64,000 bases of DNA from Ostreococcus lucimarinus (lineage: Eukaryota): the NCBI GenBank assembly GCA_000092065.1, contig CP000592.1. One strand, 5' to 3'. Below the pieces are notes generated by a model that worked only from the letters and a program-made list of their open reading frames with translations, ran no database searches and was not told the DNA's origin. The first letter of the stretch is position 1. Each line of letters opens with the position of its first letter. Below, piece after piece: positions 1 to 53,618 of this stretch. Both the position numbers and the translations under genes were made by a program.

Positions 1-497
<497 letters not shown>

Positions 498-718: not shown

Positions 719-1989
719 TCACGCGCCGTCGACGGCGTCGTCGCCGAGGGCGGCCTCGGGCGGCTTGGTCTTGCCGGAGACTTCCTGCGCTAAAATCGAA
801 GCCAAGTACTTGCCGTGCTCTTCGATGGCGGTTTGTAAGCGACGCTGCGCGATGAGCTGGTCGTGGAGCTGCTTTTGCATCTCGAGCTGTTTCAGCAAAG
901 CGTGGCCGACGTGAGGCATGTCTTCGATGAGTTCCGCGCTGACGACGGCGGCGGCGGCCTCGTCCGACAACGTCGCGGCGGGCTTGAGCGCTTGGGCTAA
1001 AATTGCGTCCAAGGCATGGATTTTACCCTCCGATCCCAGCGTTTTGGCCTTCATCGCGGAGGTGCTATTCAAGAGCTCGGACAACTGCGCCGTCGTCACC
1101 GGCGTCGACGGCGGATCGCTCGATAAACCACTACCCATCGGCGCCGCGCTCGCGACGTCCAAACCCATCAAATCTGCCTCGCTCGCCCGCTGTTTCATCT
1201 CCGCCTGCTGTTGCACGCGCGCGCGTTTTATCATCGCGCGTCTCTCGCGATCAGCCTCGGCGTCGAGCTCGGCGCCTCGCGACCCGCCGGCGCCCTCCTG
1301 TAACCTATACTTTTGCAAGTGCGACTTGATGTGTTGAATAGTCATCCCGCTCATGGCCATGATATGCATGATGCCTTTCGGCGTCGCCAGCTCCAACCCC
1401 CCCAACTGATTCACGGCGTTGATAAACTCTCTGTGCAACTCCGGCGTCCATCGCAAGCGCGCGCCGCCTCGACCGTTCCTCCCCCGCGTCGCGTTTCCCT
1501 CCTTCCCTCGTCCCGCGTTCGCCTTCGCGCGCTTCTCCTGCCCCGACGTCGACGCCCGCGCGTCCCCGCTCGCCCTCGCTCGCTTCCTCCCCCCCCCCCG
1601 GCCGTCGTTCGCCCGCGTCCCGTCCCTCGCGTCGTCGTCGTCCTCCGCCGCGTCCTCGCCGAGCGCGTCCTCGTCCTCGACCCTCCCGCTCGTCGCGCCG
1701 CGCACGATGACGTCGTCCAACCAATCCTACGATCGCGATTCGCGTCTCGCGCGTCAGTCGTTCGTCGCCCGCTCTCGATCGCGCGCCGTCGTCGTCGTCG
1801 TCGTCGTCGTCGCCTCGACCTCGGTCGCGTCGTCGGTCCATCGCGTCGCGTCGCGCTTTCGTCGTCGCGCGCGCGCGTCGTCGGGCGCGTCGTCGCGCGC
1901 ACCAGCGTGTCGTCGACCGCGCCGTCGAGCGCGCCGTCGCCGGCGCCGGCGAGGCCCTCGAACAGGGGCCAGAACCGTTCGTCCGCCAT
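719..1989 (-). CDS. MYB-CC (GARP/SHAQKYF-class) transcription factor, PSR1/PHR1-like. Exon 2 is 1726..719. Proposed exon 1 is 1989..1903 ([29 protein letters not shown]) and the proposed intron is 1727..1902.
   Basis: The protein contains [21 protein letters not shown]...HLQKYRL (a SHLQKYR-type Myb domain) followed by a coiled coil with LHEQLE-like [21 protein letters not shown]. The listed ORF starts at TTG (1720), so there is no ATG before the Myb domain. The codon immediately upstream of the ORF is an in-frame TAG that coincides with an AG acceptor, and a GACTGACGC branch motif lies 24 nt upstream of it. An upstream ATG at 1989 and a CTG|GTGCGCG donor at 1902 give an in-frame join. Confidence 0.6.
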
Positions 1990-9735: not shown

Positions 9736-10031
9736 TTCGCCTCGTTAGCTCCGCGCTCGCGCGCCGCGCGACTCCCCGCCGCTCTCGCCATCTTTACGCC
9801 GGCGATTCACTTCATCGGGCACCACGTTTGATTTCATTTTTGTGAGATGCGCACGCGCGCGCGCGAGCGCTTCGCCGACCGAAGCGACGTAGGGTTCACG
9901 CGCGCTGTTCAAACCCTCGCTCTTCGATCGGATCGCGCGCGTCACACCGCGCCGCGCGCCCGTCTCGCGCGTGAACCGCCCGCACGCTCGAGAGCGCGCA
10001 CGCACGAACGCGCCGCGCGAACGCACGCGCG

Positions 10032-20255: not shown

Positions 20256-20720
20256 CGCGTCCTTTTAACGCCATCCTTGTAACGCGCATGTTTGCACATT
20301 TTGCGAGTCTCGAAATTTCTCGATCTCTTCGTCCCCGAAGGCGCCACCCACGGCTCGGTAACTGTCGGCACCGTTCCGCACACGCTCGCGCTCGCGCTCG
20401 CGCGCACGGTGCGTCACTCGTCGCGCGCGCGCGCTCGACGATGAAACGCACATCGCTCGATCGATCGACCGCGTGCCGACGCGCGAAACCGCTCGACGAC
20501 GCGATCTCGAGCGCGCGAACGACGACGACGACGATCGCGAGAATTCTCGAGAATCGACGCGCGCGACGCGATGTCGCGCGCGGTGCGACCGCGCTCGAGA
20601 GGCGACGAAGGAGACTGACGAAAGCGCTCGATCGGCGGCGGTGCGTAGGATCTGAAGATCGACGCACGCGCGCGCGCGCGAGCACCCGAACGATTGTTTG
20701 ATTTTCGCGCGACTCAGCGC

Positions 20721-21569
20721 ATGGGCGGTTGGCACGGCGCGGAGACGCACGGCGGCGGCGGGTTTCGAGAGACGCGAGGGGAGACGCATCAACCCACGGC
20801 GATGCAAGTGGAGTATCGCGAACATCGAGAGACGCATCACCGCGAAGAAGGCTCGCGGGAACGGACGGCGCCGCGAGAACGAGAGCCGGCGGCTTTTCCC
20901 ACAAAGCCGCCGTACGTCGCGTTCGTCGGAAACTTTCCGTTTGAGGCGACGCAGGATGAGGTGTTGAAGGCGTGCGGGGCGACGCCAGAGGCAGTAAACG
21001 TCCGCGCGATGACGGATAGGAGTCAGACGAAAGTTCGAGGGTACTTTGTGGAGTTTCCAGACGCGGACAGTCTTCGCGAAGCGTTGAAGGCAGACGGCTT
21101 CGTCATGGGCGAACGCCCGTTGCGCGTCAACGTCGCGGATGAGCGGAAGTCGATGGACAGAGGACGAAGAAGTTCTACCGATCGCGGGCAACGTCGAAAC
21201 TCGCATCGCGAGGATCAGTGGACGTCTGTGGGCAACGCCGCGCCGGTGCCGAAAATCGTCGAGCCGGCCGCGGAGCGTCCCAAATTGGTGCTCAAACCGC
21301 GAAGCATCGAGAGGGACTCCGGAGAGCCTCCGATCGCCGTCGGTTCTGCGTCTATATTCGGTGGCGCTAAACCAGTGGACACGAGCAAAATTCTCGCCGA
21401 GGTTGAGAAGAAGATTGACGCCGAGTTGCACCGCGAACCGGCAAAGCTTCCGACGCCGAAGCACGAGAAAAAAGTGCACACTCCCGTGCTCAAGATTCAA
21501 GAAGAAGTCGTGACGCGCGTGGAGAACACTAACGTCTTCTCTCTTTTGTCCATCGAGGATGACGAATGA
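20721..21569 (+). CDS. eIF4H/eIF4B-like RRM translation initiation factor
   Basis: The track ORF starts at TTG 20694; the first ATG is at 20721. The RRM PPYVAFVGNFPFEATQDEV...VRGYFVEFPDADSLREALKADGFVMGERPLRVNVADERK and downstream ERPKLVLKPRS...ASIFGGAKP are collinear with human eIF4H. Confidence 0.75.
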   Translation: MGGWHGAETHGGGGFRETRGETHQPTAMQVEYREHRETHHREEGSRERTAPREREPAAFPTKPPYVAFVGNFPFEATQDEVLKACGATPEAVNVRAMTDRSQTKVRGYFVEFPDADSLREALKADGFVMGERPLRVNVADERKSMDRGRRSSTDRGQRRNSHREDQWTSVGNAAPVPKIVEPAAERPKLVLKPRSIERDSGEPPIAVGSASIFGGAKPVDTSKILAEVEKKIDAELHREPAKLPTPKHEKKVHTPVLKIQEEVVTRVENTNVFSLLSIEDDE

Positions 21570-24614: not shown

Positions 24615-26981
24615 CTAAGAAAGGTGCATCGTGATCTCGGGCGCCAACTTTCGAGAAAGCGCCGGCAACGCCTCCCGCCAACCCCCTTCGACGGCGAGTC
24701 GATCGACCATCGCTTGATCGAGCAGGGACTGCGTGTTCTCATCATGGCTGAACGGTTGGGACATAGAGCGCATGAACGTCCGCGCGACTTGCATGGCCAT
24801 GTCCGTGGACAAGTTCAGTACCTCTTCGCGCAAGTGCGTGGTGATCCATCCCGGCAGCTTTCCGCGCTTGTCCTGCGAGTTGTATCGTTTGTCCGCAAAA
24901 ACCATGAGACCGTAATCTTTTTTCGAGCGGATGACTCGCCCGACGCACTGCGCCGCTTGCCTCACCGCATCAAACGCTAAAAAGTCGCTCTCTTTGATTT
25001 GGAACGTCTCTCGCAAATACTCGAGTCGCGCGCGCAAGATGCGCGAGAGCGTGTACTGATACGGTACGCCGTACATGACGACGGCGCGGCCGTAGTGCCG
25101 ATCGAAATCGATCCCTTCCGCAACTTTTCCGCGCGCGACAGAGAGGAAAATCGCGCCCCGGCCGCAGTTACACGCGCGTCGGTAATTGTCGAGCGCCAAA
25201 GACGTCTCAACCACGTCGGTGGTTTCGATGAAGACGAGTTTGTGTTGCATGATTTCTCGCAAAATTCCCGTCTCGTGCCACTTGCTCACGATGTTTTCCA
25301 TGTAAGAATACGATACGAAAAAAGCGACAATGCCGTCGGGAACGGTTTGCGCGAGACCAATCAAGATTCGCCCGTAATTTTGAATCACGTTCGGATCGTC
25401 GCGCATGTCAAACTTCGTCGACACGGCTTGCTGATCCGCCCCACGAGTGATCACCATCGGACACAAGCAATCGCGCGTAAGCGTCATTGCTAAACTCCGT
25501 ACGCTCACAGGATTGAACCCAAGAAGTTTTGGGTACAAATCAATCGGACTCAACGTTCCAGACGTGATGAACACGGACTGGAAACGCTCAAACACGGGCT
25601 TGATGGCGAGCGACGCGTCCAAGCACGCGAGTTGCAACACTGGATCCGGAATGTTTGGATAACGCTCATCGTAAGGCTCGAGAATCAGCGCAAAGCCGTT
25701 TGAGTACGTCCCAACCAACGCGGCAAAGTTTGCCACCAAAGATAGCGCGTTGAATTCGTCCATGTCCACGACTTCGAGCGTCTTCAACAGGCTCGTCAAG
25801 CGGTCGTAGCAAAACTTCAACGTCTTCCCGTCTATTCCCGCGTTCGCGGCGCAGTGCTGCAAAAACGCCGTCGGTGTTTCTTGTTCCACCTGCGTCGATC
25901 GTAATCGCATATTGAGGTACTCAACGAATCGTTTCAACACCGCGACGAAGTGCTCGGCCCGTCGAATGTTCCCCGGCACGGCTTCGCGCAAAATATCATC
26001 CGGAATAATCGGGTTCATCAACACGTCTTCGCCACCGCCTCGCGCTAACACGCCTTGCTGCGCCAGCCCGTTCACCAAGCGCTCGTACTCTTGACGAAGC
26101 CGCCGCTCGTCGGTTTGTTTCGCCCTGTCTATGCGCGTGTTCAACGACGTAATCGACCGCCCCGCGTTTTCCAACGTCTGCTGGCGAAGATTCACACTCA
26201 ACGCCTCGATGCACACGTTATCGATGTTGTGCGCTTCGTCGAACACTACGATACACTCCTTTTCCAACGAACTCGACACCAAGCTTGCCACCTTCGGGTC
26301 GAGCATATACTGATAGTTGTACACCACGACGTTGGCGAACGAAATCATATTCCTCGCCAAAAAATACGGACACCACTTCTTCGTTCGCCCGAACGCGCGC
26401 AAATCGTGCAAGGTGTACACCCCCGGAGGCAACACCGCCTTCTCTCCCGCGCTCTCAAAATCCTCAAAAAATTCGCAACAGTTCCCTTCGCCCCCGTCCT
26501 CCACGTTTTCGTTTTCGCTCGCCCCTCGCGCCTCCCGTTCCAACCGTTTCTCTCGCACCCAGCTCGCCGTCAACCGTCGGCACTTCCCATCCACGCTCTC
26601 CCTCGACCCCTCGTCCACGACTCGCGGATTCACGCACATGTTCTTCCTCGACGACAGCCCGAGCGCCAGCATCGCCGCGACGTCCTCGCCCGCTCGCGCC
26701 GCTATGAATCGTTCCAACGTCCGGCACTCCGCCAGCACCTTCTCCATCTCCGGCACCGTGCGCGTGCAGTATATCAGTTTCCCACACTCCGGGTGCGCGA
26801 TCTGATAGCTCACGCACAGCGACAGCACGGTGATCGTCTTCCCCGTCCCCGTGGGCATCTCGATCGCGCCGTGCCCGCGCGCGTCGAGCGAGCGCTTGAA
26901 CTCGGTCATCATCGCCAGCTGCTCGGGGTATATCTGGGGATACGGGAAGAACACGCGCAGGCCCTCGAGGTTGAAGTCCAT
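24615..26981 (-). CDS. ERCC2: TFIIH helicase XPD/ERCC2 (Rad3 family 5'-3' DNA helicase)
   Basis: MDFNLEGLRVFFPYPQIYPEQLAMM...MPTGTGKT...VVFDEAHNIDNVCIEALS...Fe-S Cys cluster...C-terminal HD2 motifs. Collinear with XPD from the N-terminus. Confidence 0.9.
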   Translation of the reverse strand: MDFNLEGLRVFFPYPQIYPEQLAMMTEFKRSLDARGHGAIEMPTGTGKTITVLSLCVSYQIAHPECGKLIYCTRTVPEMEKVLAECRTLERFIAARAGEDVAAMLALGLSSRKNMCVNPRVVDEGSRESVDGKCRRLTASWVREKRLEREARGASENENVEDGGEGNCCEFFEDFESAGEKAVLPPGVYTLHDLRAFGRTKKWCPYFLARNMISFANVVVYNYQYMLDPKVASLVSSSLEKECIVVFDEAHNIDNVCIEALSVNLRQQTLENAGRSITSLNTRIDRAKQTDERRLRQEYERLVNGLAQQGVLARGGGEDVLMNPIIPDDILREAVPGNIRRAEHFVAVLKRFVEYLNMRLRSTQVEQETPTAFLQHCAANAGIDGKTLKFCYDRLTSLLKTLEVVDMDEFNALSLVANFAALVGTYSNGFALILEPYDERYPNIPDPVLQLACLDASLAIKPVFERFQSVFITSGTLSPIDLYPKLLGFNPVSVRSLAMTLTRDCLCPMVITRGADQQAVSTKFDMRDDPNVIQNYGRILIGLAQTVPDGIVAFFVSYSYMENIVSKWHETGILREIMQHKLVFIETTDVVETSLALDNYRRACNCGRGAIFLSVARGKVAEGIDFDRHYGRAVVMYGVPYQYTLSRILRARLEYLRETFQIKESDFLAFDAVRQAAQCVGRVIRSKKDYGLMVFADKRYNSQDKRGKLPGWITTHLREEVLNLSTDMAMQVARTFMRSMSQPFSHDENTQSLLDQAMVDRLAVEGGWREALPALSRKLAPEITMHLS

Positions 26982-27433: not shown

Positions 27434-28693
27434 ATGGTCATCGCGCGCGCCGCGGGCGAAGGCGTGAAGGTGGAGTCGGTGAAAAAACCGCGATTGCCCG
27501 CGCTGGACAGCGTGCGGTTCTTTTTGATCACGTACATCTCGGTCGGGCACTTTATCGCGTGCGCGACGAAGAACGCGCTCGCGCTCGCGGCGTTTTCGCA
27601 AGTCAACGTCGTCGTCGGAGCGTTTTTCGTGCTCAGTGGGTACGTCGCGGCGTACACGACGACGGAGCTGGGCAAGTACGAAGCGCAGACGGGGCGATTA
27701 CGCCCGACTCCAAAGTATTTCGTCAGTCGCGTGATGGGGTTTTATCCGCTGTACTTTGTCGTCAACTGCGTCTTCGCGCCGATGTTTTTTTATGCGGATT
27801 CGTTTTACAACGGGCCGTTGACGGCCGCTGTGCACGGTTTCATGACGTTTACTCTCACCCAAGCGTGGTTCCCCATGCACGCCGAGCTTTGGAACGCGCC
27901 GACGTGGTTTTTGAGCGCGTTCACGTTTGCCTTGGCGGCGATGCCGTTCGCGTTGCCGAGCGTGGCGCGCTTCAAGCGCGAGCACTTGCATTCGGTGTTC
28001 AAGGTGCTGATAATCGTGTCTCTCTTGGCGAAGATCGCGTACTCCTACGATCTCAACGCATGGGGCTTCATGGAAGGCATGATGTCCGCGAAGACGCACC
28101 CAAACTGGCTGTACTTTAACTCGGTGCGATTTTCACCCTTCAACGCTTTGATCGACGTCTTACTCGGCGCCGTCGCCGCGCGAACCGTCATGGTGGACAG
28201 CGCCGAGGGCGAGTCCGTGCCGAAGCAAAACAAACTTTTGGCGTGCTCGGCGACGCCGTTGGTGGCCATGGTGGCGTTTCTAGCCGCTCGCGCGCTCGGC
28301 GTCGTCGCAGTCAACGACGCGTTATCGAGGACAATTTTCACCGTTTTGTTCTCCGCGTTCGCCGTCAACGTACACCGAGAGACGGTGCGCGAGGGCGGTG
28401 AGGGGTCTTTGGTCTCGAAGATTCTTTCGCTAAAACCTTTGGTGTACCTCGGAACGATTTCGTTCCCGATTTACATCTTACACGGTCCCATCGGTCAGGT
28501 GTTTTACAAGCGCGTCGTGGCGACGAAACTCTTCGGCAAGGTTTTCACCCAGTACCCGCAATTTTTCCCAATCTACCTCCTCATCGTTCTCGTCGCCGCC
28601 ATGCTGACGCACGAGTTTTTCATTAAGAATAAAAAAGTGCAAGAGCTCAGTAAAGCGGTGAGCGACAAAGCCACGGCGGCGTTGACGGATTAA
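27434..28693 (+). CDS. Acyltransferase-3 family (OafA/NolL-like) multi-pass membrane O-acyltransferase. The ORF extends to 27194, but that part overlaps an antisense low-complexity region.
   Basis: N-terminal RLPALDSVRFFLITYISVGHF matches the acyltransferase_3 signature (R..LD.LR...V...H). About 10 predicted TM helices. Conserved C-terminal FPIYILHGPI. Confidence 0.55.
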   Translation: MVIARAAGEGVKVESVKKPRLPALDSVRFFLITYISVGHFIACATKNALALAAFSQVNVVVGAFFVLSGYVAAYTTTELGKYEAQTGRLRPTPKYFVSRVMGFYPLYFVVNCVFAPMFFYADSFYNGPLTAAVHGFMTFTLTQAWFPMHAELWNAPTWFLSAFTFALAAMPFALPSVARFKREHLHSVFKVLIIVSLLAKIAYSYDLNAWGFMEGMMSAKTHPNWLYFNSVRFSPFNALIDVLLGAVAARTVMVDSAEGESVPKQNKLLACSATPLVAMVAFLAARALGVVAVNDALSRTIFTVLFSAFAVNVHRETVREGGEGSLVSKILSLKPLVYLGTISFPIYILHGPIGQVFYKRVVATKLFGKVFTQYPQFFPIYLLIVLVAAMLTHEFFIKNKKVQELSKAVSDKATAALTD

Positions 28694-28894: not shown

Positions 28895-29565
28895 TTATTC
28901 TTCCTCGTTGTCGTCCGCGATGTTGAAGTATCTCAACTCGTACACGTTGCGTTCCTTGTTGGACGCAATCACGCGCAACCAATCACGAACGTTGTGCTTC
29001 TTGAGGTACTTCTTCGTGAGGTACTTCATGTAGCGCTTGCTCATCGCGACTTCGCTCGTCACCGTCACCTTCGTCTTGTCGCTCGACACGCTCACCGCCT
29101 CGCCGAGCGCGCCCGCCTTACCACCAACCTTGATACGATCGGTGAGGAACGCGGTGAACGAACCAATCTCCATAATCTTGTCCTCGACCTATTCGCATCA
29201 AAGAATATCGCATCGTCAGTCATCGTCCCTCGTCGTCGTCTCGAGTCGCGCGTTCGCCGCTCGCCCTGTATTTTAGGGTTTCACACGCACCGGCTTCGCG
29301 CAGTCGATGACAAAGGTGGAAACCTTCTTCTTCGTGTCTACGCCCGCGAAAACATCCCACGCATCGTCAGTCGTCTCTCCAACTCGCTTCACTCGCGCGC
29401 ATCCGCGTTCCCACGACGCGCGGCGGCGACGACGATCCATCCCGCCGATCGACCCATCGCGCGTCGGTCGCGCCCGCGCGCCGTTTCTCGACGCCGCGCC
29501 GCGCCGTCGTCGCGTTCGACGCGCCGTCGTCGCGGCGAGAATATCGTTCGCACCTTTCGGGGCCA
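28895..29565 (-). CDS. RPL22: Ribosomal protein L22e (eL22), three exons: 29565..29553 (MAPK+G), 29337..29291 and 29188..28895, with introns of 215 nt and 102 nt.
   Basis: Exon 3 encodes [29 protein letters not shown]...[39 protein letters not shown] (near-identical to plant eL22). Exon 2 encodes [16 protein letters not shown], ending at a CCG|GTGCGTGTGAA donor. Exon 1 is ATGGCCCCGAAAG followed by a GTGCGAAC donor. Both introns carry GACTGACGATG 26-32 nt before the TAG acceptor. The splice phases give a continuous eL22 sequence. Confidence 0.8.
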
Positions 29566-29743
29566 TGATGTCGTCGACGGGCGCTGTCGCGCGCTTCAAA
29601 GAGGCGTCGCGCGACGGCGCGGTCGCCGCGGTCGATGCGTCTGTCGTCCGTGTGTGACTCGAGACCGCACCGGACCAATCAACCACCGCGCGCGCCTCGG
29701 CGCCGCGCGCGTTCCCTCACACGACGACGCCGACGCGCGCGCG

Positions 29744-30062
29744 ATGGACGCGGCGACGGACGCGGACGCGGGTGCGATCGATCGACGCGACGCGCGCGCG
29801 CGGGCGAACGCGCGAACGCGCGAACGAACGACTGACGGCTGACACGTCGTCGACGACAGAGCGCCCGCCGCCGAGCCAAGACGCGCAGGACGCGCGCGAT
29901 GAGGCCTCGGCGAAGGTGTACCTCGAAACTCACGTCACGAGCGTCCTGCACGACGCCCTGGTGGCGCTCAACGCCGCGCGCCCGGCGGACCCGCTCGCGT
30001 GGCTCGGCGAGTACCTCTTAAAAGAATCCGCCGCGCGAAAGGCGAAAGCCGACGCCGCGTGA
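29744..30062 (+). CDS. DPY30: DPY-30 domain protein (COMPASS DPY30-like), two exons: 29744..29771 and 29860..30062, with an 88-nt intron.
   Basis: The C-terminus AKVYLETHVTSVLHDALVALNAARPADPLAWLGEYLLKES is a Dpy-30 dimerisation motif. The track ORF starts at GTG 29772 with no in-frame ATG. Exon 1 is ATG...GCGG followed by a GTGCGATCG donor. The intron has GAACGACTGACGG and a GACGACAG acceptor. The join is in frame (MDAATDADA-E-RPPPSQ...). Confidence 0.7.
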
Positions 30063-30304: not shown

Positions 30305-30405
30305 TGTCCACGACGGGGCTCGAACCCGCGGCCTTTTGATGACTCGCGCGTCGCTCGCGCGCTTCGCGTAGAAGTCAAACTATCTTCCAACTGATATACG
30401 TGGAC
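30305..30405 (-). tRNA. tRNA-Arg(UCU) gene with a 28-nt intron after position 37
   Basis: Minus-strand fold: acceptor GTCCACG/CGTGGAC, D-arm TATC-AGTTGGAA-GATA, anticodon stem TTTGA/TCAAA, loop CT-TCT-A with an intron (CGCGAAGCGCGCGAGCGACGCGCGAGTC) before A38, variable loop AGGCC, T-arm GCGGG-TTCGAGC-CCCGT, discriminator A. No encoded CCA. Confidence 0.85.
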
Positions 30406-41114: not shown

Positions 41115-41240
41115 GCGACACATTGTCGCTAGTTGTCAATTTAAAGAAACACGTGTTGATTGAATGAGTGTGAAAATAATGTTGTCGCTTATTAAGAAGC
41201 TTCTACTGCTCTAATGTTTTGTGTTCGCGCGCAACGCTTC

Positions 41241-43426
41241 TTACAAGGAGAACGCTTCGGGATCGGGCGCGGCCGCGCCGCCGGCAGCCTTCGTCTTCTT
41301 CTTAGGGATTTCAGTGATGACCGCTTGCGTCGTGAGCACCATACCCGCGATGGAACAAGAGTTTTGCACGCCAGAGCGGGTGACCTTCTTCGGGTCGAGA
41401 ACGCCCTTATCAATCAAGTCACCGTACTCGCCAGTCATGGCGTCGTAACCAAAGTTGAATTCGCCATCCATGACGTGTTGCACAATCACATCACCTTCCG
41501 CGCCAGCGTTGTTGCCGATGAGTCTGCACGGAGCCAGAAGCGCCTTTTGAACGATTTCCGCGCCCAAGCGTTCCTCGGCGTTAGTGAGGGTCGGCTTGAA
41601 TTCGTCGATCATCTTGCTCAAGTGCACCAAAGCGGCGCCACCACCCGGGACGATGCCTTCCTCGACCGCGGCAAAAGTGGCGTTCTTGGCATCTTCAATA
41701 CGAAGCTTGCGTTCTTCTAATTCAGTTTCGGTCGCGGCGCCAACCTTAATGACGGCAACACCACCGGCGAGCTTGGCGATGCGTTCGGAAAGCTTTTGGG
41801 TATCGTACACGGAATCCGTCTCCGCGAGCTCTTGCTTGAGTTGAGCCACGCGAAGGTCGATGTCTTCCTTGGACGCACCATCAGCAATCATGGTGGTCGT
41901 CGTTTGCGCGATGGAAACCTTACGGGCGTAGCCGAGGCAGTCCATGTTCGCGCGCGCGACGCTGAGACCGAGATCCTTGGCGATGTATTGAGCGCCAGTG
42001 ACGATGGCGATGTCTTGCAACAAGGCCTTACGACGCTCACCGAAACCCGGCGCCTTGATGGCGGCCACCTTAAGCACGCCGCGCATCTTGTTGACCACCA
42101 AAGTGGCGAGCGCTTCGCCCGTGATGTCTTCGGCGATGATCAAGAGCGGCGGGGACCCCGCTTGGGACACCTCTTCCAAAAGTGGCACGAGCACTTGAAC
42201 TTGTTCAATCTTCTCGTCCGTGATCAAAACGCGACAGCCTTCAAATTCAACCATCAAGCGTTCGTCGTCGTTGACGAATTGCGGAGAAATGTAACCGCGA
42301 TCGATTTCCATGCCCTCCTCGACTTCGACAACGGTTTCCAAACCGGTGCCGTTTTCGATGGACAAGACGCCATCCGGGCCAACCTTTTCGATGGCTTCGG
42401 CAATCATGTCACCGATGGAGACATCGTTACCCGCGGAGATGGAAGCGACGGCACGGATATCTTGCTGGTTGCGCACCGGAATCGTGAGCTCGTCGAGCTT
42501 TTGACGGCAGAATTCAGACGTCTTGTCGATGCCGCGCTTCACCGTCACCGGGTTGGCGCCCGCGGCGACAGATTGCAAGCCGTACTTGATCATCTCACGC
42601 GCGAGCACGGACGCAGTCGTCGTGCCATCGCCTGCAGAGTCATTCGTTCGCCCTGCGACTTCCTTGATGAGCTGCGCACCGGCGTTCTCCACCGGATCCG
42701 GTAATTCGATGGCGCGCGCAATGGTCACTCCGTCGTTAATCACTTGCGGCATCCCAAACTTTTCCTCGAGCACCACGTTTCTCCCGCGAGGACCGAGCGT
42801 CACCCCGACCGCATCCGCCAATTTATCGATTCCAGCTTGAATCTTGCGTCGAGAACTCATGTCAAACGTGATATCCTTCGCCTCGGCGCGAACCATCGCG
42901 ACGCGGCGGCGGCCGCCACCGCGTCGACTCTGCTTCGCCGTTAGCGCCGACGTCTGCGCGCGTCATCAATCATCAATCATCATCGTCAGTCGGCGTCATC
43001 GCTCGCGCACTATTCTTCACCACCACGCTCGACGCCGTTCGCGCCCGTCGCGCCCTTCGCGCGCCGTCGCGTCGACGGCTTCGCACCCCAGCCGTCCGAC
43101 GGCGGCGAGGCGCCCCTCGCGCGCGCCTCCTCCCGCGCCCACGCACGCGCGTCCTCGCGCGTCGCCGTCACCGCGCCGTCGCGCGATCCAACGCGCGAAA
43201 ATTTTCTCATCCAGACGCCGCGTCGCGCGCGCGTCGCGCGCGTCGCGTCCCCCCGTCGTCGTCGTCGTCGCGCGCGATGCCGGACGACCCTGGAAGAATC
43301 TTCCGAAGCGCGTCGTCATCGTCGCGCGGCGTCGCGCATCACCGTCGCGCGGCGTCGCAGTCGCGCGTCGACGATGGGGGCTATATTCACACGCACCGTG
43401 AGCGATCGCGAGGTGAGAGACATCAT
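41241..43426 (-). CDS. CPN60A: Chloroplast chaperonin 60 alpha (Cpn60-alpha / RuBisCO-binding protein alpha). Exon 1 is 43426..43397, a 443-nt intron spans 42954..43396, and exon 2 is 42953..41241.
   Basis: The mature region [40 protein letters not shown]...[16 protein letters not shown]...[12 protein letters not shown] is group-I chaperonin, closest to plastid Cpn60-alpha. The ORF begins directly at the mature N-terminus, with in-frame TGA TGA 22 codons upstream, so the transit peptide must come from an upstream exon. Exon 1 is ATGATGTCTCTCACCTCGCGATCGCTCACG followed by GTGCGTGTGAATATAG. The intron has CGACTGACGATG 29 nt before the CGCGCAG acceptor. The join gives [33 protein letters not shown]|EAKDI..., an S/T/R-rich transit peptide with a VRA processing motif. 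Confidence 0.8.
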
Positions 43427-43696
43427 CTTGTGCGCGCGAGAGCGGGCGCGGACGCGTCTCGGAATGCGGCTTCGCGCGCGCCTTCGGGGCGAAAACCTGA
43501 AAAATTCCGCGCCTTTACGTACGTAGAACGCGCGAGATTCGCCCATTTATCATGACCGCGCGAGCGACGTACACGACGAGTCTTAAGACCGTGTAGGCGA
43601 GCGCTGCACGCGGTGCGATTTCGCGCCGACGGCCGGCGCCGACGCGGCGACGCGACGACGCGGGGACGCGACGACGCGACGCGACGCGCGCGCGAC

Positions 43697-44734: not shown

Positions 44735-45370
44735 TCAGCATTCAGGCGACTCGGTCATTCGGCATTCGGGCGACAGGACGATAATAGGCAACGAGAGCGT
44801 AATTTGGTCGCCTGCGAGTCGCCGAGTGTCCTCAAGAATGTCAATTGTGTCCTCAAGAATGTCAATTGTGTTAGCATGTCGTGCTCGTGCTTCTTCTTGT
44901 TCTTGTTGTTCTTCTCGTCGTTCGTGTTGTTCCGACGCCGCCTCGTCGGGCGAGGGCGTCGGCGTCGGCTCGTCCTCGTGTCGGCGGCGGCATGCGCGAA
45001 GATGATTCGCGAATCCGGCGGCACGCTTCCCGATAAAACCACAATGCGGGCACACCAACGATTGCGATTTCTTGTGCGTCGACGCGAGGGGCTGATTTGC
45101 CGACAACGTCTTCAACTTTTTCATCTTTCGTGCTCTGTAAATTCGACTGTATTCATTCTTTTTCAACCGCTTTCGCTCTTTTCGTTCTGTATCGTCGCTT
45201 CCCTCCGTCGTGCTCGCGCTCTCGTAATATTTCACGTCTGCGCGACTACGGCGACGTTCGTCGATCTCTGGCGGAGGATACCCAGGTTCCAAGGCTTCGA
45301 GAATGGTGTCGATCTGAACGATGTCGTCGTCGACATCCTTGGGACTCAGGCACAAATCAAATCGTGGCAC
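44735..45370 (-). CDS. Hypothetical K/E-rich protein with a single C2H2-like zinc finger. The start is unresolved and the region is compositionally AT-richer.
   Basis: VCPHCGFIGKRAAGFANHLRAC has C2H2-type spacing. The ORF begins at GTG with no ATG for about 80 codons. It contains a 22-bp tandem duplication (TIDILEDTIDILEDT). Local GC is about 52%, against about 66% elsewhere. Confidence 0.3.
   Translation of the reverse strand: MPRFDLCLSPKDVDDDIVQIDTILEALEPGYPPPEIDERRRSRADVKYYESASTTEGSDDTERKERKRLKKNEYSRIYRARKMKKLKTLSANQPLASTHKKSQSLVCPHCGFIGKRAAGFANHLRACRRRHEDEPTPTPSPDEAASEQHERREEQQEQEEARARHANTIDILEDTIDILEDTRRLAGDQITLSLPIIVLSPECRMTESPEC
44836..44879. repeat. 22-bp perfect tandem duplication (GTCCTCAAGAATGTCAATTGTG x2) inside a hypothetical CDS
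   Basis: A direct repeat read from the sequence. It yields TIDILEDTIDILEDT in the minus-strand ORF. Confidence 0.8.
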
Positions 45371-45688
45371 GCGTGCGGTAACGCTGTAGAGAGCGTTTTG
45401 TTTTTTGATCGATCCTACGGCACCGCAGTACTGTGGTTGGTCAGTTCCTGAACGTTTGTGTGTGCGCGCGCACTACCTTGCCAGCACCCTGTTGTATCGA
45501 GCCGTCCTCTTTAAACACCGTCAATTGCGAGCGAATGAAACCGGGATAGATGGTTCTATCGATCAAGCGCTCGAGCTCGCGGCCGACGGTGCGACGGCGG
45601 GTCGCCATGAAGAGATGAAGAGAAAGAGAGAGAGTCGAAGTATGAAGATTGCGCGGTTTGGACGATTCTCGTTACACGTGGGTTTCTT

Positions 45689-53299: not shown

Positions 53300-53618
53300 C
53301 GCGGCGTTCGATCCGTGTCGAGGTCCTGCGAGACGATCGCCGAATCGTCGCGGCTTTCGTCAGTCGTCGCTCGCTCGGTGCTCCGCGGTGCGTCGTACGC
53401 GTCGTCCGCGTCGACGATCCGATCGACGTCGCGCACGCACCGTCGCGCGTCGGCGTGTGCGAACGACGGAATCGTCGCGCGAGAGACGCCGACCCGGCGG
53501 CGACCGCGCGCGAGGACGCGCTCAACCCTAGTCTAAGGTTTTCCTTGGAAGGTTTTCTTGCGAATGCGCGGCGGCGCGAAGGGCGCGGCGACCGAGGCGC
53601 GTGACGATGAAAACGGAC

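Follow-up and report, generated by a model that had tools for sequence, protein, structure and literature searches.

Introns with near-uniform splice signals in a stretch of the Ostreococcus lucimarinus genome are very probably ordinary spliceosomal introns of the species' constrained-signal class

The introns that share donor and branch signals in a 64,000-nucleotide stretch of Ostreococcus lucimarinus DNA, referred to here as the window, are very probably ordinary U2-type spliceosomal introns of the constrained-signal class, which occurs genome-wide in this species except in the intron-rich half of chromosome 2. The uniformity of their donors and branch sites, recovered here from raw sequence, is a rediscovery of a published property of the genome. 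What is new is at the level of curation only, and consists of a 13-nt first exon of the eL22 (RPL22) gene, a first exon of CPN60A, and two probable leader introns. An earlier note on this DNA had described seven such introns as reminiscent of an introner-like or recently propagated family, a suggestion that our results do not support.

The window contains an open reading frame (41241..42896, minus strand) whose 551-aa product is 100% identical to XP_001420863.1, the 'chaperonin 60 alpha chain, chloroplast' of O. lucimarinus CCE9901. Its GC content is 54-69% throughout, and the syntenic locus in O. tauri lies on CAID01000012.2. Because of these three observations, the window lies outside the atypical low-GC, intron-dense part of chromosome 2. 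Four long metagenome contigs (L001-L004) matched the window with 99.6-99.9% identity, and the source is therefore an abundant marine picoalga.

Motif counts in the window were compared with those expected from dinucleotide-preserving shuffles of the same sequence. The 9-mer GACTGACGA occurred 7 times, against 1.23 expected, and the 8-mer GACTGACG occurred 9 times, against 4.09 expected. The 3' module GACTGACG-N19-29-YAG was observed 8 times against 0.65 expected, a count that was reached in none of 100 shuffles. The bare 7-mer ACTGACG was not enriched in the window by the same measure (11 observed, 10.9 expected). The signal thus comes from the longer motif together with its spacing, and the 7-mer by itself does not carry it. 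The eight module matches corresponded to the seven introns described previously and to an eighth, at 20409..20648 on the plus strand, and every one of them was located at the 5' end of a gene, in sense orientation and preceded by a consensus donor.

All eight introns began with GT[G/A]CG. Seven had GTGCG and one, the ARF intron, had GTACG, which agrees with the donors previously proposed for the first seven, and GTGCGTG was present in three of the eight. Each intron contained GACTGACG, with the branch A located 24-34 nt from the 3' end, and ended in a YAG acceptor. The common branch motif that had been claimed for the seven introns therefore holds for the 8-mer and for this spacing, but the exact 9-mer GACTGACGA was found in only five of the seven, and in six of all eight, the exceptions being the MYB intron, which has GACTGACGC, and the DPY30 intron, which has GACTGACGG. 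A polypyrimidine tract was absent from all eight, the pyrimidine fraction being 0.38-0.48, and the intron lengths were 88, 102, 115, 176, 216, 240, 365 and 443 nt. The 11-mer GTGCGTGTGAA, said to begin both eL22 intron 2 and the CPN60A intron, was indeed present at 29280..29290 and 43386..43396, in both cases as the donor. With one mismatch permitted, it had 2 matches in the window versus 1.63 expected. We rejected it as a sign of common origin, since the donor consensus of the species accounts for 7 of the 11 bases and the interiors of the two introns do not align.

Two other occurrences of these signals were observed. A match to GACTGACGA/GACTGACG at ~27720-27721 on the minus strand lies antisense within an acyltransferase ORF, and is probably a chance occurrence rather than an intron. 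A possible further short intron, of the form GTGCGC...AACTGACC...GTAG, was seen at ~45415..45473 on the minus strand, in a small gene downstream of an eIF4A-like helicase; this candidate gave no in-frame join to the downstream 211-aa ORF.

The same signals have been reported from a much larger sample. Irimia & Roy (PLoS Genet 4:e1000148; PMC2483917) analysed 560 EST-confirmed introns of O. lucimarinus. Among the EST-confirmed introns outside chromosome 2, ACTGAC was present in 87.2% and GACTGACG in 66.5%, and the 5' splice sites were strong (4.8 bits), with an 'atypical consensus GTGCGTG' (PMC2483917). The genome-wide motif frequencies given here are these literature figures, and our own counts are those of the window.

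For CPN60A, removal of the intron was observed in RNA. An RNA contig of 1837 nt (L005; Logan, SRR33975898) aligned to 43428..43397 and then to 42954..41171 with 99.94% identity. It joins 43397 to 42953, with the intron at 42954..43396 removed exactly, and is thus not collinear with the genome across an interval for which splicing had been predicted. The intron (minus strand; 443 nt, phase 0) has the donor GTGCGTGTGAA, the branch sequence GACTGACGA with its branch A 32 nt from the 3' end, and the acceptor GCAG. The exon 1 that precedes it (43397..43426, minus strand) is 30 nt long, encodes 10 residues and is missing from the GenBank model XP_001420863.1, which starts with MVRAEAK. The predicted 580-aa product had an exact match on the RNA contig. 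Exon 1 and the 5' part of exon 2 together encode a 29-aa, Ser/Thr/Arg-rich N-terminal extension, which is predicted to be a plastid presequence.

The eL22 gene, on the minus strand, was resolved into three exons. Exon 1 (29554..29566), read from the sequence, is a 13-nt micro-exon, ATGGCCCCGAAAG, encoding MAPK and the first base of an Asp codon; exon 2 (29291..29337; 47 nt) supplies the rest of this codon and 15 further residues; and exon 3 (28895..29188) includes the stop codon. Intron 1 (29338..29553; 216 nt, phase 1), which had been placed correctly except that its upper coordinate was given as 29552, has the donor GTGCGA, the branch sequence GACTGACGA with its branch A 29 nt from the 3' end, and the acceptor GTAG. 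Intron 2 (29189..29290; 102 nt, phase 0) has the donor GTGCGTGTGAA, the same branch sequence with its branch A 27 nt from the 3' end, and the acceptor ATAG. A telobox-like sequence, AAACCCTAAAA, was also noted within intron 2. In the exon 3 region, metagenome gene callers match Pfam Ribosomal_L22e on a 92-aa ORF. The spliced product of 117 aa aligned over its full length with green-algal and plant eL22; a search of the protein collection for the exact 117-aa product gave no match.

The GenBank entry for this protein, XP_001420861.1, is marked 'partial' and comprises 111 aa starting with KKKVSTF; intron 2 is spliced in it and exon 1 is missing. The view that first exons had been mis-annotated was therefore correct both here and for CPN60A. 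In a transcript from O. 'lucimarinus' P0186 (MMETSP Transcript_6477), intron 2 was removed and intron 1 was retained, so that this RNA agrees with the predicted splicing for the second intron but not for the first.

Evidence on eL22 intron 1 came from related lineages. The O. tauri protein, XP_022840140.1, begins MAPKDNKKK, and in its gene (L010 10001..10671) one intron follows nt 13 and another follows the 47-nt exon 2. A third lineage (L011) has the same exon/intron structure as the window. In transcripts of a sister lineage (L006-L009), both introns were spliced out and exon 1 was identical, ATGGCCCCGAAAG. The 13-nt exon 1 was common to O. tauri (L010), L011, L015 and the spliced transcript L006. 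A 28-mer spanning the exon 1-exon 2 junction was not found in JGI metagenome contigs, nor was a same-species transcript with intron 1 spliced. From these comparisons, eL22 intron 1 appears to be spliced in O. lucimarinus as well. The eL22 exons of the window, O. tauri (L010) and L011 were 81-89% identical, and both intron positions were the same in all three. Across these lineages the intron interiors were at or near the shuffled baseline (for example, 0.60 versus 0.56 and 0.36 versus 0.34), the highest identity being 0.67 versus 0.59 in shuffles, for intron 1 of O. lucimarinus and O. tauri. The eL22 introns are thus old, and have kept their positions and, of their sequence, only the signals.

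Three further genes gave similar results. The DPY30-like gene (plus strand) has an exon 1 of 28 nt (29744..29771), encoding MDAATDADA plus one base, and an 88-nt, phase 1 intron (29772..29859) with the donor GTGCGA, the branch sequence GACTGACGG followed by a second CTGAC, a branch A 24 nt from the 3' end, and the acceptor ACAG. Exon 2 (29860..30062) encodes the Dpy-30 domain (PF05186) and the stop codon, and it has no in-frame ATG, consistent with the earlier reading of this ORF as one that does not start with ATG. The spliced 76-aa product is exactly XP_001420704.1, and the intron is already present in the GenBank model. A 5' intron of the form GTGCGT...GACTGACGA...GCAG is likewise present in Dpy-30 of O. 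tauri. In the gene for a SHAQKYF-class MYB protein, an intron at 1727..1902 (minus strand; 176 nt, phase 0) has the donor GTGCGC, the branch sequence GACTGACGC with its branch A 27 nt from the 3' end, and the acceptor GTAG, and its removal gives a 364-aa product that is exactly XP_001420857.1. For both genes, the splicing status in GenBank was deduced from these exact protein matches.

The ARF1 intron (minus strand; 365 nt, phase 0) lies between Met22 and Val23, and has the donor GTACGT, the branch sequence GACTGACGA with its branch A 32 nt from the 3' end, and the acceptor GCAG. Its coordinates are 67..431, and not 57..431 as first proposed. Joining across 431/66 gives a 44-aa N-terminus (22+22) that aligned without gaps with the ARF1 chain 3aq4_A, residues 4-47, at E = 9e-20. 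The proposal that spliceosomal introns conceal short first exons is borne out by the RNA contig for CPN60A, the transcript for eL22 intron 2, the GenBank proteins for DPY30 and MYB, and homology for ARF.

The two remaining module matches are putative introns in 5' leaders. In the gene for plastidic cysteine synthase (CysK), a putative intron of 115 nt occupies 53326..53440 on the minus strand and stops 26 nt short of the ATG; its upper coordinate had been given as 53441. It has the donor GTGCGT, the branch sequence GACTGACGA, in which the branch A is 34 nt from the 3' end, and the acceptor GCAG. Each intron had been held to restore an ATG or a transit peptide, which is so for CPN60A, eL22 and DPY30, for example, but not for CysK, where an intron in the leader restores neither. 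The second putative leader intron, 20409..20648 on the plus strand (240 nt; donor GTGCGT, branch sequence GACTGACGA, branch A 30 nt from the 3' end, acceptor GTAG), precedes the ATG, at 20722, of an RRM-domain gene that by eye looks eIF4B/4H-like. The O. tauri CysK gene has GTGCGT...GCTGAC...GCAG upstream of its ATG, and the O. tauri ortholog of the RRM gene has a leader intron with the branch sequence ACTGACG. The motif and these O. tauri counterparts suggest that both leader introns are spliced.

It is possible, though unlikely, that some of the module matches are never spliced, and that those in the CysK and RRM leaders, and conceivably eL22 intron 1, are chance or regulatory motifs in 5' leaders. 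We found no O. lucimarinus transcript that splices either leader or eL22 intron 1, the MMETSP transcript retains the latter, and one GACTGACGA match, that at 27720 (minus), is antisense in a coding ORF and evidently not an intron. However, only 0.65 matches to the full 3' module are expected by chance per window, while all eight of those observed were sense matches at gene 5' ends with a donor upstream. Equivalent signals were found at the same places in O. tauri for eL22, CysK and the RRM gene, and in the sister-lineage transcripts eL22 intron 1 has been removed directly after an identical exon of 13 nt.

Retention of eL22 intron 1 was also seen elsewhere. Three contigs from metagenome samples, belonging to another Ostreococcus lineage (L015-L017), keep intron 1 and are without intron 2. 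All three start 35-50 nt upstream of the eL22 ATG, which gives them the appearance of transcripts; alternatively, they could be genomic DNA from a lineage that has lost intron 2. When retained, the 216 nt of O. lucimarinus intron 1 are open in frame, and the intron of the other lineage has an early stop and an internal ATG, from which a restart would give an almost full-length eL22. In yeast, RPL22 is subject to an autoregulatory loop. By analogy, intron 1 could be part of such a loop in Ostreococcus, but we consider it improbable that it is a regulated, frequently retained intron. No excess RNA structure was detected in eL22 intron 1 or in any other of the 13 introns folded (MFE z of -1.5 to +1.0).

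The likeness of the introns at their ends raises the question of common descent. We compared the interiors of the eight introns, each shortened by 12 nt on the 5' side and 45 nt on the 3' side, in 28 pairwise Smith-Waterman alignments against shuffles. For 27 of the 28 pairs, the scores could not be told apart from those of shuffled controls, with z from -1.1 to +1.6. The single remaining pair had a z of 3.15, but this was a comparison of 45 nt with 31 nt, and its score only equaled the shuffle maximum.

An ancient burst of an introner-type element in the ancestor of Ostreococcus, after which the interiors diverged and only the selected signals stayed alike, seems to us very unlikely. Interiors are saturated at the present divergence, and intron content does vary between congeners: the XPD gene of O. 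tauri contains an intron of 96 nt, carrying AGACTGACGAG, which the O. lucimarinus ortholog lacks. Such a burst is nevertheless unnecessary, as strict spliceosomal requirements lead to a like picture in the intron-poor genomes of many unrelated lineages (PMC2483917). Less likely still, to the point of being hardly tenable, is the suggestion that a single element, mobile or recently propagated, gave rise to the introns by copying, with donor and branch alike by descent, as in Micromonas and in fungal introner-like elements; although the intron ends are uniform, two introns start with the same 11-mer GTGCGTGTGAA, and introner elements are known in the related genus Micromonas (PMC4540971), 27 of the 28 interior pairs show no similarity above shuffles, the lengths spread five-fold (88-443 nt), five of the eight introns (both of eL22 and those of Dpy-30, CysK and the RRM gene, which were the ones compared) have O. 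tauri counterparts, those of eL22 are placed identically in three lineages that have diverged from one another, where their interiors are near the shuffled baseline, and the identical motifs are present in most EST-confirmed introns outside chromosome 2, where they have been published as the splice consensus (PMC2483917).

Two other intron classes were tried and rejected. U12-type introns have the donor [A/G]TATCCTT and the branch sequence TCCTTAAC 10-15 nt from the acceptor, and the introns of the window have GT[G/A]CG donors and GACTGACG at 24-34 nt. The short introns of Ostreococcus chromosome 2 are 40-65 bp long, and their signals for splicing and branching are weak or atypical (PMC2367439, PMC2483917); those described here are 88-443 nt long, with strong consensus signals.

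An ordinary set of constrained-signal introns would account for the observations as follows. In an intron-poor genome, with introns clustered at gene 5' ends, recognition would proceed through near-invariant core signals, namely a GTGCGTG-like donor and a GACTGACG branch sequence at 24-34 nt from a YAG, with no polypyrimidine tract. From established knowledge, the core of GACTGACG, CTGAC, would be the canonical CTRAY box, in which pairing with U2 snRNA bulges the A. Because every intron has to meet one strict requirement, unrelated introns come to be alike at their ends, and this likeness would then reflect convergence on a signal rather than shared ancestry. The short first exons would be a by-product of the 5' bias of the introns. 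Since gene finders easily overlook first exons as short as these (13, 28 and 30 nt in eL22, DPY30 and CPN60A, respectively), eL22 is 'partial' and Cpn60-alpha is without its presequence in GenBank.

The biological weight of these findings is small, as the motifs were published in 2008 and exemplify, in textbook fashion, how strict splicing signals are where introns are few. Their practical value is in curation. The 3' module GACTGACG-N19-29-YAG flagged only plausible introns in the window, and with 8 matches against 0.65 expected, we judge the earlier proposal to look for missed first exons by means of the motif to be sound. RNA-seq-based re-annotation, reportedly used for the O. tauri v2 gene models, achieves the same as such a motif search.

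Among known systems, the introners of Micromonas and the fungal introner-like elements resemble the introns of the window in being spliceosomal, in having canonical splice sites and in the likeness of their copies, and Micromonas belongs to a related algal order. However, introners are described (Worden et al. 2009, as cited; Simmons et al. 2015, PMC4540971) as alignable over their whole length, with many near-identical copies and clade-specific insertions, whereas the introns of the window share only splice signals, vary five-fold in length and include the positionally conserved eL22 pair. Within the Mamiellales, five members have been found to use GYGCGY donors, each with a U1 snRNA that carries the standard pairing sequence, so that U1 is standard despite the +4C of the donor (bioRxiv 10.1101/2022.06.08.495308). 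An Rfam search of the whole window returned one tRNA and no snRNA.

A further likeness is to the introns of hemiascomycete yeasts, which also reside in intron-poor genomes, with a near-invariant donor and branch, a constrained distance from branch to acceptor and a concentration at gene 5' ends (PMC2483917). These yeast introns are enriched in ribosomal-protein genes, are 5'-biased and follow short first exons. As in O. lucimarinus, where Lanier et al. 2008 found that intron presence correlates with higher expression (PMC2367439), the same correlation is seen in the yeasts (PMC2483917; PMC2367439). The signals themselves differ, being GTATGT and TACTAAC in yeast and GTGCGTG and GACTGAC in O. 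lucimarinus. Relative to the 2007 GenBank annotation, the window adds two gene-model corrections, exon 1 of eL22 and exon 1 of CPN60A. The constrained-signal class of Irimia & Roy (PMC2483917) comes from the same organism and has the same motifs, and where introns are few in that genome, its 3' structure is strong and uniform. All eight introns of the window fit this class, and nothing essential differs from it, the 9-mer of the earlier note being the published 8-mer plus one base, which is A in six of the eight.

The eL22 (RPL22) gene, on the minus strand, was found with intron 1 kept and intron 2 missing in P0186, a MMETSP transcript of O. 'lucimarinus', as well as in three metagenome-sample contigs from another Ostreococcus lineage (L015, L016 and L017), whose 5' ends all lie 35-50 nt upstream of the eL22 ATG. 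In O. lucimarinus the retained intron 1 (29338..29553, -) is 216 nt long and open in frame. Its counterpart in L015 (61..286) has a TGA at once, plus an internal ATG that restarts eL22 as MIIADVDNKKK. RNA structure above expectation was sought in eL22 intron 1 and was not found. The presence of intron 1 in these sequences may reflect regulated retention; alternatively, the three contigs may be genomic DNA from a lineage that had lost eL22 intron 2.

A telobox-like motif (AAACCCTA / TAGGGTT) was observed just within eL22 intron 2 (29274..29280, -), and another copy lies upstream of the leader of the plastidic cysteine synthase gene, CysK (53524..53530, +). Counterparts occupy matching places in eL22 intron 2 of a third lineage (AAAACCCTAG, L011 ~1066) and upstream of CysK in O. 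tauri (CTAGGGTT, L014 ~2205). With a further copy at 9890..9896 (-), the window holds three matches versus 0.81 expected, which is only a weak enrichment.

Read-through of introns was also seen in gene predictions. On metagenome contigs L001-L003, prokaryotic gene callers began translation at the GTG within the DPY30 donor site (GTGCGA), so that the 96-aa protein they predicted (29772..30062, +) runs straight on across the intron. Comparable artefacts are present in public protein collections for eL22 (P0195, P0033) and Cpn60 (P0137).

Other possible introns were noted in the window. Rfam reported a tRNA at 30305..30405 (-) with 53.4 bits; because this match spans 101 nt against a 71-position model, the tRNA probably contains an intron. 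ARAGORN reported no tRNA over the window. A candidate intron of ~59 nt (45415..45473, -; GTGCGC...AACTGACC...CCGTAG) is preceded by a first exon of 45 codons, whose ATG is at 45608; this arrangement lies shortly after the stop codon of an eIF4A-like helicase. No in-frame splice to the ORF that follows (44735..45370) could be made.

Comparison with O. tauri revealed a presence/absence difference between congeners in an XPD-type helicase gene. The O. tauri gene (L010 12675..15164) carries a 96-nt intron (GTGGGT...AGACTGACGAG...AAG), placed after ...VYPEQ, whereas the O. lucimarinus ortholog (24615..26981, -; MDFNLEGLRVFFPYPQIYPEQLAMM...) is intronless. Among Ostreococcus micro first exons, the one annotated for O. 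tauri Dpy-30 (L010 8725..8729, -) is an extreme case, with just 4 coding bases, ATGG, followed by a GTGCGT donor. In O. lucimarinus the divergently transcribed eL22 and DPY30 genes are separated by an ATG-to-ATG gap of only 177 nt (29567..29743), whereas in O. tauri an additional annotated 349-aa gene (L010 8838..9887) lies between them.
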